Shown here in pieces: positions 1 to 4,436 of a stretch of DNA of 4,510 bases (position 1 is the first letter of the stretch; each line of letters starts with the position of its first letter). Source of the stretch: a virus (Duplodnaviria; Heunggongvirae; Uroviricota; Caudoviricetes); IMG/VR virus record IMGVR_UViG_2724679238_000010. One strand, given 5' to 3'. The position numbers were made by a program, and so were the translations under genes. Under the pieces are notes generated by a model. That model was not told the DNA's origin, did not search any database, and saw only the letters and a program-made list of their open reading frames with translations.

Positions 1-365
1 CCGATAGCCGCCGCCAGATGGTTTTTTCCGGTACCAGGTTTTCCGCTGAACGCGAAATTTGTGCATCCGGTCATCAGTTCATCAGCGATGGATTTCGCCT
101 GACTTAACGCGTATCGCTGGCCGTCGTTCTGTACATGGTAATTCGCAAACGAGCATTTACGGTGCAACGGCTGGATGCCTGAGCGATTCAGAATTTTTTC
201 CACCCGCAACTGGCGATTCAGGCGGTTGATCTCCTCGCTACGCTTCTGGCCTTCAGCAAGTTGCCACTCGCGCCACTCCGCTACCGTTCTGAATGGGGCG
301 GTTACATGTGGCGGGGTCAGTCTGCGGATACGTTCCAGAACGCCGCCTGTCGCAATATTTTTCAT
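1..365 (-). CDS. DnaC/IstB-like replicative helicase loader, N-terminal 121 codons only (3' end beyond window start)
   Basis: Manual reverse-strand translation from ATG at 363..365 gives MKNIATGGVLERIRRLTPPHVTAPFRTVAEWREWQLAEGQKRSEEINRLNRQLRVEKILNRSGIQPLHRKCSFANYHVQNDGQRYALSQAKSIADELMTGCTNFAFSGKPGTGKNHLAAAIG, open to position 1. The C-terminal stretch FSGKPGTGKNHLAAAIG is a Walker A P-loop in the context typical of DnaC/IstB loaders. A G-rich SD (rc of 372..378, GGGGG) lies 9 nt upstream. Absent from the ORF track because it has no in-window stop. By synteny this would be the Rac ydaV position. Confidence 0.8.
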   Translation of the reverse strand, partial: MKNIATGGVLERIRRLTPPHVTAPFRTVAEWREWQLAEGQKRSEEINRLNRQLRVEKILNRSGIQPLHRKCSFANYHVQNDGQRYALSQAKSIADELMTGCTNFAFSGKPGTGKNHLAAAI

Positions 366-371
366 GGTTCG

Positions 372-1349
372 TTACCCCCTGAACCCCGGAGGAATTTCGG
401 TGTCCGGTTCAGAAATATGATTCACACAACGCTGTACAGGTGAACGCCCCAGGCGGATGACCAGTTCGTCCCATTTTTCGCGGAGCTTTGACGGGCTCAT
501 GATGTTTTTTACCCAGAATGGATCCCGCTGTACCCGCCCAAACATTTCGCAAATTTGTCTGTGAGTTCTGCCATCCAGCATCCGCATTGTGCGCACGTCA
601 TTGGCCCACGCGGTCCAGTTTGGTTCTTTCGGTCGCGTGATCTCGCCATCATCGCTGGCCGCCTGCTCGTAAAGACTCACGATTCGTCCCCAGATCCACT
701 GTGCGCACGCCAAATCTTCCTGACTTCCCCACTGGCGTTTTTTCGCACTGAACACAACCGCATCAGGGTGTCGGGTTAAAAAATCCTGTTCAGCCGTCTG
801 CGGGTCCGGTTGCGAAGCGTCCGGACAAGAAGATCTTTTATCTGATGGATCAGATTTTAATACTGACGGATCGGGGTCAATCATCGCCCCCCTAACCGAC
901 CGTTTTTTATCAACGGTTGATCCATCAAAATTTGACGGGTCAACCGTTGAGGGGGCAATATTTGACGGGTCAACCGTTGAGGGGTCAATATTTGACGGGT
1001 CATTTTTGGCCGGGCTAATTTTTCTTTTCGGTTTATATGCCTCTCGCGCCGCCGCTGCTGCAGCTTCGAGTTTTTCCACATTAAGCCGGTAGATATTGCT
1101 TACGTTACGTCCGCCAACCTTACGCTCTTCCTTTGTCAGCCAGCCGCTCTTTTCCAGTTCCGCTATCGCCGCTTTAACCGTTGATTCACTCTTTGCCCCA
1201 ATCTGACGACGAATGGTCTCTACTGCAGGCCATGACACACCTTCATCATTGCTGTAGTCTGCAAGACGAGCCATCACTGCCACCCTGGATAAGATCATGC
1301 CGGTGAAGGCACACCCTTCCCAGACAAGACCATGAAGCTTGCTGCTCAT
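372..1349 (-). CDS. phage replication initiation protein, lambda O-like (N-terminal winged-HTH domain, repeat-encoded linker, C-terminal domain)
   Basis: 325-aa ORF with ATG at 1347..1349 and a GGGG SD-like run 6 nt upstream. The N-terminal segment (GMILSRVAVMARLADYSNDEGVSWPAVETIRRQIGAKSESTVKAAIAELEKSGWLTKEE) looks like the winged-HTH of phage replication initiators. The middle is a 10-aa peptide repeat (DPSNIDPSTV / DPSNIAPSTV / DPSNFDGSTV) encoded by 30-bp DNA iterons. It lies immediately upstream of the DnaC-like loader gene. Family assignment is from recalled features, not a search. Confidence 0.85.
   Translation of the reverse strand: MSSKLHGLVWEGCAFTGMILSRVAVMARLADYSNDEGVSWPAVETIRRQIGAKSESTVKAAIAELEKSGWLTKEERKVGGRNVSNIYRLNVEKLEAAAAAAREAYKPKRKISPAKNDPSNIDPSTVDPSNIAPSTVDPSNFDGSTVDKKRSVRGAMIDPDPSVLKSDPSDKRSSCPDASQPDPQTAEQDFLTRHPDAVVFSAKKRQWGSQEDLACAQWIWGRIVSLYEQAASDDGEITRPKEPNWTAWANDVRTMRMLDGRTHRQICEMFGRVQRDPFWVKNIMSPSKLREKWDELVIRLGRSPVQRCVNHISEPDTEIPPGFRG
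909..1003. repeat. putative replication origin iterons inside the initiator gene: 30-bp tandem direct repeats with internal dyads
   Basis: Seen directly: 927..956 aaaatttgacgggtcaaccgttgagggggc; 957..986 aatatttgacgggtcaaccgttgaggggtc (28/30 identical); 987..1002 aatatttgacgggtca (truncated third copy). Each unit holds overlapping palindromes TTGAC-GG-GTCAA and TCAAC-C-GTTGA. An inverted relative, TCAACGGTTGA, sits at 910..920. A more AT-rich stretch follows at 1003..1040. The layout resembles lambda ori inside gene O. Confidence 0.6.
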
Positions 1350-1372: not shown

Positions 1373-1798
1373 TTAGTGCATCACCACGGCATTTCCTGCC
1401 GGGCCACCGCGATTAATCTGGTTGAAACCAGCAATTGCCACCGCAATAAAATCATCTGCATCCCTCACCAGCCGCTCCCGCGTCTCCAGCAGCTCCCGAA
1501 AATAGGCTGAACTGTGACTGCGCATTCGGGCCACCAGCAGAGGCGGCATTGCCTTTTCGATCGCTGGTAACAACGCCTGAATTTTTTTAACCGCATCAGG
1601 GGTGTCTTTCTCCACCCAGCGGAAAATTTTCTGAGTATTGCGAGCCAGGGCTTCAGGATGGCTGTCGTCATATAATTCCGGGAACGTCATACCCAGCTCA
1701 AAATAAGCCCGGGTTATTTCAGCCGCCGGAACTTTTTCACCGTCCGGATGCGCCCAGGCATTCATCACCATGCGGATGTGCTCATGCTTGATTATCAT
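1373..1798 (-). CDS. ydaT: YdaT-like protein (CII-like regulator, toxic on overexpression in Rac-type prophages)
   Basis: 141-aa ORF, ATG at 1796..1798, with AGGAG SD (rc of 1807..1811) 8 nt upstream. The protein (MIIKHEHIRMVMNAWAHPDGEKVPAAEITRAYFELGMTFPELYDDSHPEALARNTQKIF...) matches my recollection of the E. coli YdaT family. It sits directly downstream of the cro-like gene. Symbol is from recalled similarity plus synteny. Confidence 0.8.
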   Translation of the reverse strand: MIIKHEHIRMVMNAWAHPDGEKVPAAEITRAYFELGMTFPELYDDSHPEALARNTQKIFRWVEKDTPDAVKKIQALLPAIEKAMPPLLVARMRSHSSAYFRELLETRERLVRDADDFIAVAIAGFNQINRGGPAGNAVVMH

Positions 1799-2063
1799 GA
1801 ATCAAGCTCCTGGAAAGTGGTTGTGTTAACGTTTTGGTATCTTCCAGCTCGGGCCAAATATTCATCCAATCAAAAGGCCTTAGTTGCTGACGTGTAACTT
1901 CACCATTACTGGCTCGCTCAATAAGGACACATAACGATGCCCCTAACACTTGACCTTTACTCAATGCCTTTCTTAGATAACCGATGCTAGTACCACACTC
2001 ACATGCAAACATACGCTGTTCATCTGACGAAAGAGAATTGAGAAATATTCTTAATTCTTCCAT
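1782..2063 (-). CDS. ydaS: YdaS-like Cro-type HTH transcriptional regulator
   Basis: 93-aa ORF, ATG at 2061..2063, with AAGGAG SD (rc of 2069..2074) 5 nt upstream. The segment GTSIGYLRKALSKGQVLGASLCVLIERASNGEVTRQQLRPFDW fits the YdaS/Cro-like family pattern (ERA..GEV...LRP.DW). It is the first gene of the operon divergent from the repressor and overlaps ydaT by 17 nt. Confidence 0.8.
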   Translation of the reverse strand: MEELRIFLNSLSSDEQRMFACECGTSIGYLRKALSKGQVLGASLCVLIERASNGEVTRQQLRPFDWMNIWPELEDTKTLTQPLSRSLIHDNQA

Positions 2064-3545: not shown

Positions 3546-3882
3546 ATAGATTTCCTTCTTGGTTATTCGGGATAAGAAGGATACCACCTCGCCTGACGTG
3601 GTTAAAAGCAGGCACACAACACGAAAGCGCACGGCGAAGTTCGTCTCACTGTACGGTGTCGTTAAATTTAATTCGACCGTGCGCTTCCGGTTGTGGCAAC
3701 CCGCGAAATGGCGCGGCGGTAAGTATGGCGGGGTTATTCCTTCCCCGTTGAGGACACCGGGTTGTCAGGTTGACCATACGCTTAAGTGACAACCCCGCTG
3801 CAACGCCCTATGTTATCAATTTTCTGGTGACGTTTGGCGGTATCAGTTTTACTCCGTGACTGCTCTGCCGCCCTTTTTAAAG

Positions 3883-4030
3883 TGAATTTTGTGATGCGGT
3901 GAATGCGGCTAAGCGCACGCGGAACAGTTAAAACCAAAAACAGTGTTATGGGTGGATTCTCTGTATCCGGCGTTAATTGTTAACTGGTTAACGTCACCTG
4001 GAGGCACCAGGCACCGCATCACAAAATTCA
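3883..4030. repeat. perfect 19-bp inverted repeat pair enclosing 110 bp with GTTAAC dyads
   Basis: 3883..3901 tgaattttgtgatgcggtg is the exact reverse complement of 4012..4030 caccgcatcacaaaattca. The enclosed region holds GTTAAC-TG-GTTAAC (3979..3992) within cgttaa...ttaacg (3971..3993). The right arm ends 5 nt before the SD of the 4048 gene. Confidence 0.7.
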
Positions 4031-4047: not shown

Positions 4048-4236
4048 ATGGAAACGTTATTACCAAACGTTAATACGTCTGAAGGTTGTTTTGAAATTGG
4101 TGTCAGAATCAGTAACTCTGCATTTACTGAAGATGCCATTAACAAGAGAAAACACGAACGGGAGTTATTAAATAAAATATGCATTCTTTCAATGCTGGCA
4201 CGTTTACGCCCGATGCAAAAAGGATGCTGGCAATGA
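4048..4236 (+). CDS. hypothetical small protein, 62 aa
   Basis: ATG 4048 with GAGGA SD (4036..4040) 7 nt upstream. Protein METLLPNVNTSEGCFEIGVRISNSAFTEDAINKRKHERELLNKICILSMLARLRPMQKGCWQ. Its stop TGA (4234..4236) overlaps an in-frame ATG (4233..4235) of the next ORF. The track ORF starts at a GTG (3943) lying inside the inverted-repeat region, which I consider non-coding. Confidence 0.4.
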   Translation: METLLPNVNTSEGCFEIGVRISNSAFTEDAINKRKHERELLNKICILSMLARLRPMQKGCWQ

Positions 4237-4436
4237 ATACAGCAATTGCTCTCACTCTGATAGTTTTTCTTAATACGGGCGAGCCTGTTGACCCGGTTAT
4301 TGACATTTACGGTTCAATGAAAGAATGCACGGCTGCCGCAGCGGAACAGAAAACTCCCGGTAACTGTTATCCGGTCGATAAAGTTATTCATATGGACAAT
4401 AACGAAATCCCGGCAGGACTTAAAACAGCACCGTAA
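4179..4436 (+). CDS. hypothetical small protein with signal-peptide-like or membrane-anchor N-terminus (85 aa; alternative start 4233 gives 67 aa)
   Basis: ORF MHSFNAGTFTPDAKRMLAMNTAIALTLIVFLNTGEPVDPVIDIYGSMKECTAAAAEQKTPGNCYPVDKVIHMDNNEIPAGLKTAP. Basic residues (KR) precede a hydrophobic stretch (AIALTLIVFL), followed by a polar region with two Cys. Start is ambiguous: ATG 4179 has only a distant GGAG; ATG 4233 has AAAAAGG 9 nt upstream and forms an ATGA overlap with the preceding ORF. Confidence 0.45.
   Translation: MHSFNAGTFTPDAKRMLAMNTAIALTLIVFLNTGEPVDPVIDIYGSMKECTAAAAEQKTPGNCYPVDKVIHMDNNEIPAGLKTAP

Follow-up and report, generated by a model that had tools for sequence, protein, structure and literature searches.

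A segment at positions 820 to 1014 of the window (the whole 4,510-nt stretch of DNA that was analyzed) is probably the replication origin of a lambdoid prophage, embedded in the gene for its own initiator. This assignment is drawn from comparisons of sequence among related loci and from structure prediction. A single stretch of DNA within this segment is under selection in two roles, that of a protein linker and that of an array of candidate binding sites, with the wobble positions being the most conserved, and the region encoding the N-terminal domain moves together with the repeats and an AT-rich segment as a specificity module while the C-terminal domain is exchanged. The arrangement is likely to be a new example of the familiar lambda plan in which both the DNA-binding domain and the repeats are of another type, and it leaves the accepted picture of lambdoid replication unchanged. 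It also provides a testable origin map (array, candidate unwinding element, initiator domains, and loader) for a module that is present in approximately 28% of complete Escherichia coli genomes and in many other Enterobacterales, with relatives in the Shigella serotype-converting phages SfII and SfIV.

Prophage context and anatomy of the repeat array

The window derives from a lambdoid prophage of the Rac/Qin type and covers the region responsible for its immunity and replication. It matched prophages in E. coli chromosomes at approximately 92% identity, and residues 1 to 112 of the initiator were 100% identical to a partial protein of Escherichia albertii. The replication genes lie on the minus strand, while a repressor-like gene, DUF1391, DicF, dicB, and ydfD have the opposite orientation. 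The features referred to below are as follows, with the strand being given for coding features.

1782 to 2063, minus strand: cro/YdaS-like gene, first in the minus-strand gene order
1373 to 1798, minus strand: cII/YdaT-like gene, between the cro/YdaS-like gene and the initiator gene
372 to 1349, minus strand: O-like replication initiator gene, 325 aa (PHROG 391, "replication initiation O-like," 5e-115; Pfam HTH_36 at aa 25 to 71)
3 to 365, minus strand: 5' part of a DnaC-like helicase loader gene, cut by the window edge (NCBIfam PRK12377, 1e-71, and DnaC, 3e-36; PHROG 50, "DnaC-like helicase loader")
1035 to 1349, minus strand: predicted N-terminal winged-helix DNA-binding domain, aa 1 to 105 (AlphaFold2, fold neighbors, and Pfam HTH_36)
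1003 to 1040: T/A-rich flank on the N-terminal side of the array, GC content of 0.35, encoding the basic tract KPKRKISPAKN
1000 to 1014: degenerate seventh unit, TCATTTTTGGCCGGG, in the array register but with a decayed core
910 to 999: array of six 15-bp units, candidate iterons (repeat searches, shuffles, and a logo of 38 distinct units)
910 to 920, 925 to 935, 940 to 950, 955 to 965 (one mismatch), 970 to 980, and 985 to 995: palindromic cores within the six units
885 to 909: spacer separating the array from the conserved segment (read from the sequence)
820 to 884: segment conserved family-wide, encoding MIDPDPSVLKSDPSDKRSSCPD, with an AT-rich core at 827 to 867; candidate DNA-unwinding element
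456 to 791, minus strand: C-terminal domain homologous to the lambda O C domain, aa 187 to 298 (BLASTP)
375 to 437, minus strand: DnaT-like C-terminal tail, VQRCVNHISEPDTEIPPGFRG (the last 21 residues match PDB entries 2ru8, 6aep, and 9zbt; NCBIfam DnaT)

Among the oppositely oriented features, the DicF small RNA was located at 3822 to 3873 on the plus strand (Rfam RF00039, 76.7 bits), upstream of dicB (4048 to 4236) and of a ydfD-like gene (4179 to 4436). These three features make the left operon Qin-like, whereas the layout of the replication genes resembles that of Rac. Between DicF and dicB, a perfect 19-nt inverted repeat was detected (3883 to 3901 and 4012 to 4030, with the arms 110 nt apart) and may be a processing or regulatory stem of the dicB operon transcript. 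Copies of a palindromic motif, TACCCATAGGTATT or AATACCTATGGGTA, were present at 2116 to 2128, 2160 to 2173, 2627 to 2640, and 2650 to 2663. These copies, which fall within 2109 to 2173 and 2625 to 2663, flank the repressor-like gene (2165 to 2584) on both sides and probably correspond to two clusters of operators that serve the immunity region.

A preliminary description of this DNA had proposed approximately 2.5 tandem 30-bp units encoding a 10-aa repeat. Tandem Repeats Finder detected a repeat at 925 to 1002 with a period of 30 (2.6 copies, 93% matches, score of 142), in agreement with that proposal, but the same stretch was also reported with a period of 15 (5.2 copies), and the basic unit is 15 bp encoding 5 aa. 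The longer period arises because two 15-bp variants, TCAAATATTGA and TCAACGGTTGA in gene orientation, alternate along the array; read as codons, the units are GAC CCG TCA AAT ATT and GAC CCC TCA ACG GTT. Between 910 and 1023, a repeat search identified five copies that overlap and keep strictly to a 15-bp register, together with nested inverted repeats. Each unit contains an 11-bp palindrome of the form TCAA-N3-TTGA. The exact palindrome TCAANNNTTGA was found five times in the window, always within 910 to 995, compared to an expectation of 0.12 from shuffled sequences, and none of 200 shuffles reached five copies; a sixth copy, at 955 to 965, has one mismatch. The nested palindromes of the preliminary description were thereby confirmed, as was its inverted relative upstream, which corresponds to arms at 910 to 929 and 931 to 950 with 90% complementarity. 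No other multicopy tandem array was present in the 4,510 bases. A range of 909 to 1050 had been suggested for the origin; the array does begin at 910, with six units extending to 999 and the seventh following directly, but the better-conserved flank at 827 to 867 falls outside this range.

An alternative palindrome, TTGAC-N2-GTCAA, was considered as the conserved site. This form is present in the window but fails in the Edwardsiella relatives, in which CAA-N3-TTG holds, and the N3-centered palindrome was therefore preferred.

The array is in frame within the initiator gene, as had been claimed, and occupies codons 116 to 147 of the 325-aa open reading frame, between the folded N-terminal domain, which ends at approximately aa 105, and the C-terminal domain, which starts at approximately aa 187. 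The encoded peptide is DPSNI DPSTV DPSNI APSTV DPSNF DGSTV.

Two AT-rich segments flank the array. The AT-richer flank noted previously exists on the N-terminal side, at approximately 1000 to 1040, but its 30-mer stability was only about 1 SD under the window mean, and the basic tract that it encodes is missing from the group B relatives described below. On the C-terminal side, the GC content fell to 0.33 at 830 to 869, and the least stable 30-mer of the gene was located at 833 to 862 (-31.8 kcal/mol versus a mean of -40.4 kcal/mol, with an SD of 3.5). The flank at 827 to 867 is both more AT-rich and far better conserved than that at 1003 to 1040 and, on these sequence properties, is more likely to be the unwinding element.

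The conserved segment contains GATC sites at 832, 848, and 869. Over the family, the density of GATC was 34.6 per kb in this segment versus 3.2 per kb in the rest of the genes, and the sites in the segment were mostly 24 bp apart. This enrichment is local, as the window as a whole had 18 sites versus 15.9 expected. By analogy, the region at 827 to 867 may resemble the GATC-initiated 13-mers of oriC. In two of the surveyed loci, an AT-rich, GATC-initiated 24-bp unit, GATCCACAAGTAAATTCAAAACAT (encoding DPQVNSKH), follows the repeat array in three copies (L078) or two copies (L083), adding a repeat of another kind to the candidate origin.

Conservation and exchange among related loci

A survey of one genome per species yielded 80 loci from many genera of the Enterobacterales, including Erwinia, Edwardsiella, Morganella, Mixta, Enterobacter, Kluyvera, Kosakonia, Yersinia, Providencia, Proteus, Rahnella, Pantoea, and others. 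Almost all of these loci shared a single plan, with an N-terminal domain, pentapeptide repeats, a conserved AT-rich segment with GATC sites, and an exchangeable C-terminal domain. The protein sequence of the conserved segment was GGDPSVNSxxDPSDKKxSC or a variant of this sequence in the loci that follow this plan.

Matches to TCA-N5-TGA were concentrated in the linker-encoding parts of the 80 loci, with 279 matches (14.1 per kb) compared to 27 (0.5 per kb) in the rest of the genes. All but one of the 279 linker matches were in a single reading frame, and neighboring matches were separated by 15 bp in 137 cases and by 30 bp in 29 cases. In order to tile units by protein pattern rather than by DNA motif, 38 distinct units of the window group were aligned on the encoded pentapeptide. 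Nucleotide 9, the wobble position of residue 3, was A in 100% of these units even though the residue was S, L, P, or A; nucleotide 10 was likewise A in 100%, and nucleotide 15, the wobble position of residue 5, was T in 92%. The wobble positions at nucleotides 6 and 12 were free. As positions 9 and 15 were constrained and positions 6 and 12 were not, the constraint tracks yCAA-N3-TTGA and not the codons. Family-wide, a serine located three residues before D or E was encoded by TCA in 79% of cases in the linker versus 32% elsewhere.

The conserved segment was examined by comparison of codons for identical residues in 1,364 pairs of loci with <75% identity in the N-terminal domain. Same-residue codon identity was 0.80 in the conserved segment versus 0.37 in the N-terminal domain. 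Individual codons of the segment were close to invariant, with GAT being found in all 78 loci, CCG in 72 of them, and GTA, a rare codon for valine, in 70. These codon patterns indicate that there is selection on the DNA of the array and of the conserved segment as well as on the protein. The pentapeptide residues D-P-S are fairly conserved, pointing to some selection at the protein level too, and recent duplication or concerted evolution could account for part of the codon uniformity within an array.

The segment encoding the N-terminal domain and repeats (window positions 860 to 1349) was detected in 1,520 of 5,426 complete E. coli genomes. An even sample gave 59 full-length E. coli matches, of which 55 were shorter than the window by 15 bp and 4 by 30 bp, with none being equal in length; translated examples had four or five units compared to the six in the window. 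A fragment from Escherichia albertii had three units, and Edwardsiella anguillarum had nine. The comparison of copy number among homologues that had been proposed earlier thus showed that the number varies, and every change in unit number among relatives kept the reading frame and amounted to a multiple of 15 bp.

The N-terminal domains fell into groups with different palindromic cores. Group A, consisting of the window and of sequences from E. coli, Erwinia, Edwardsiella, Morganella, and Mixta, had a TCAA-N3-TTGA core, while group B, which included most of the other genera, had a TCA(A/G)A-W-TCTGA core within the unit TCAAAATCTGA. For the Shigella phages SfII and SfIV, the identity in the N-terminal domain, the part that was compared, was 66%, which is the same level as that of group B. 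An intermediate type of N-terminal domain, MSSKLHGLVWEC, was observed in loci from Kosakonia and Pseudocitrobacter (L018 and L075), and these loci had a mixed array of group A-like cores (TCAAATATTGA and TCAACGGTTGA) and group B-like cores (TCAGATTCTGA).

Sorting by BLAST paired each of groups A and B with at least three types of C-terminal domain. In the O-like gene of phage HannyBb (L090), the C-terminal domain is of the window type (90% DNA identity) and follows an N-terminal domain of a third kind, and nucleotides 331 to 510 of the HannyBb gene contain their own three repeats, ATYGGKTCAAAA (encoding IGSK), and their own AT-rich tract. The joint between the window type and the HannyBb-type gene lies at approximately window position 839, inside the conserved segment. 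Given these combinations, the N-terminal domain, repeats, and AT-rich segment form one traveling module. Travel as one module is what would be expected of an origin specificity module, and the difference in core according to the type of N-terminal domain fits a role as a specificity determinant. The suggestion in the preliminary description that the repeat determines the specificity of this replicon is thus consistent both with DNA-level selection and with the group-specific cores.

Predicted initiator domains and interpretation of the array

An AlphaFold2 model of the initiator was built on a 28-sequence alignment. Residues 1 to 100 were modeled with pLDDT values of 79 to 92 and an H-H-H-H-E-E-H topology, which is that of a winged helix. 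From aa 111 the pLDDT value was <50, and aa 111 to 195, including the repeats, were disordered in the model. The solved folds nearest to the N-terminal domain were those of dimeric regulators of the PadR, ArsR/SmtB, and MarR families, whose dimers target palindromic sites. A profile comparison of the N-terminal domain with that of lambda O detected no homology (probability of 0.3%), and a Pfam search of the initiator returned HTH_36 only, with Phage_rep_O being absent (lambda O itself matched Phage_rep_O at 6e-36). The C-terminal domain, in contrast, is homologous to that of lambda O, with 39% identity between aa 187 to 298 of the initiator and aa 171 to 270 of lambda O (BLASTP E value of 3.7e-25).

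The C-terminal end of the initiator, VNHISEPDTEIPPGFRG, is nearly identical to that of E. coli DnaT, VNTVSEPDSQIPPGFRG. A DnaT-like tail was also observed on YdaU of strain K-12, on relatives with a different C-terminal domain (e.g., locus L006), and in many of the 80 loci. An initiator with a DnaT-like tail followed by a DnaC-like gene is a mirror of the dnaT-dnaC operon, and the tail may contact the loader or DnaB.

From these features, we infer a sequence of events for initiation. Dimers of the N-terminal winged-helix domain would bind to the six or seven 15-bp-phased TCAA-N3-TTGA palindromes, producing an O-some-like complex on the array. The adjacent AT-rich GATC segment at 827 to 867 would then melt, and the lambda O-like C-terminal domain with its DnaT-like tail would recruit the DnaC-like loader encoded downstream together with host DnaB. 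The least stable AT-rich stretch is on the C-terminal side of the array, matching the order of the annotated iterons and AT-rich tract in lambda. As an 11-bp palindrome every 15 bp is short for a typical site of a winged-helix dimer, the binding register proposed here is tentative. Our literature search found no paper describing the origin of the HTH_36-type O-like initiator family. Sp10, the one DnaC-type prophage of the O157 strain Sakai with reported replication and transfer, was considered as an experimental anchor and was the only Sakai prophage checked; its initiator belongs to a different family, and Sp10 therefore gives no support for an origin in the window.

Other explanations of the array were weighed against an origin. 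One of these is that the repeats are a flexible Pro/Ser/Asp-rich linker, varied by slippage, whose DNA has no function in cis, with the origin being elsewhere in the prophage. The predicted disorder of this stretch, the in-frame changes in copy number, and the retention of the D-P-S motif in the protein all agree with a linker, but this explanation is improbable given that the wobble positions are the most conserved of the unit and stay fixed while the residue varies, that the choice of serine codon depends on position, and that the core varies with the type of N-terminal domain. Furthermore, coding provides no rationale for palindromic symmetry, and the window is without any other iteron-like array. 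The palindromes could alternatively bind the initiator for autoregulation, copy control, incompatibility, or exclusion of related phages, with unwinding and helicase loading occurring elsewhere. Arrays of binding sites outside origins are established for iteron plasmids. Cloned fragments of lambda ori are reported to inhibit related phages (PMC3349717 and PMC4488673). A purely regulatory array is nevertheless unlikely, as throughout the family the array is directly followed by the conserved AT-rich GATC segment, which is here the least stable stretch of the gene, and the order of the parts is that of lambda ori.

The conservation of nucleotides could also reflect an mRNA structure controlling translation of the initiator or a patch of homology that promotes recombination at the module boundary. 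The RNA fold of the array is strong (-36.4 kcal/mol, z score of -6.5), and the HannyBb-type joint at approximately 839 lies within the conserved segment, with C-terminal domains being exchanged behind it. The strong fold is, however, a trivial by-product of tandem palindromes, and a recombination patch leaves the 15-bp phasing, the difference in core between groups, and the 24-bp spacing of GATC sites unexplained, so that we consider this explanation very unlikely. RNA structure was examined separately as a cause of the conservation of the AT-rich segment and gave no signal on the mRNA strand (z score of 0.03).

A broader form of the origin reading can be put forward only tentatively. The loci may represent a distinct and very widespread class of origin in prophages of the Enterobacterales, in which a contiguous array of 15-bp palindromes encoded as a pentapeptide repeat is combined with a near-invariant AT-rich pair or triplet, GATC started and 24 bp apart in most relatives, that is common to the different initiator specificities and types of C-terminal domain. 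If such a class exists, the arrangement would resemble the GATC-initiated 13-mers of oriC, and firing could be under the control of Dam/SeqA or of a host factor recognizing GATCCGTCAGTAAA.

Comparison with known origins

For lambda, it is textbook knowledge that the origin lies within the initiator gene and combines type-specific iterons with an AT-rich tract (PMC7466680). The candidate origin described here is likewise located inside the initiator gene, between the parts encoding the N- and C-terminal domains, and consists of several repeats with dyad symmetry and, next to them toward the C-terminal side, an AT-rich tract. In both cases the region is transcribed within the rightward early operon, behind a cro-like and a cII-like gene, and the C-terminal domains are homologous. 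The N-terminal domains differ (HTH_36 in the window protein and Phage_rep_O in lambda O), as do the partners, with the window encoding a DnaC-like loader and lambda encoding P. The lambda ori-in-O arrangement proposed in the preliminary description thus applies to position, order, and C-domain homology but not to the N-terminal domain or the loader. Its statement that the repeat is distinct from the lambda iteron was borne out, as lambda ori has four iterons of 18 to 19 bp at a spacing of 20 to 24 bp plus an AT-rich tract, whereas the 11-bp palindromes of the window encode pentapeptides and are contiguous at a tighter, 15-bp pitch. A further difference is that the AT-rich segment of the window type has two or three GATC sites and is conserved across genera. 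In lambda (L089), a palindrome at 655 to 690, CGTCAGAGAATTCTGGCG (encoding SENSG), was observed to the right of the AT-rich tract. It resembles CGTCAGAATCTGGCG (encoding SESGG), which precedes the conserved AT-rich segment in group B (e.g., nucleotides 391 to 420 of L019), so that palindrome and AT-rich tract occur in opposite orders in the two cases.

Lambda, P22, and phage L each have their own iterons inside the O gene or gene 18 (PMC8022706; PMC7466680), and the origins of P22 and L within gene 18 were proposed by inspection of sequence (PMC8022706). The window shares with these phages, and with Stx phages having six lambda-type iterons, the presence of type-specific iterons in a coding region and a copy number that varies between relatives (PMC8022706; PMC7466680). 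The repeat sequences and the N-terminal domains are different, and the partner of the P22 and L initiators is the DnaB-type helicase gp12, compared to a DnaC-type loader in the window.

The ydaU-ydaV/oriJ module of the Rac prophage of K-12 has the same gene order as the window (cro-like gene, YdaT/cII-like gene, initiator gene, and DnaC-like loader gene), the same loader family, and a DnaT-like C-terminal tail on the initiator. YdaU differs in having a DUF1376 N-terminal domain (3e-26), is without a comparable tandem array, and aligned with the window initiator over the last 19 residues only. Due to these differences in N-terminal domain and array, with the tail alone being shared, the identity of the window element with oriJ was ruled out.

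Plasmid iterons are usually approximately 17 to 22 bp in length, noncoding, and bound by monomers, whereas the units of the window are shorter, palindromic, and inside coding sequence. There is nonetheless a general likeness to the origins of iteron plasmids (RepA, RepE, and pi), which are established (review, PMC4980987) to combine a winged-helix initiator, tandem sites, and an adjacent AT-rich element, with specificity being set by the iterons.
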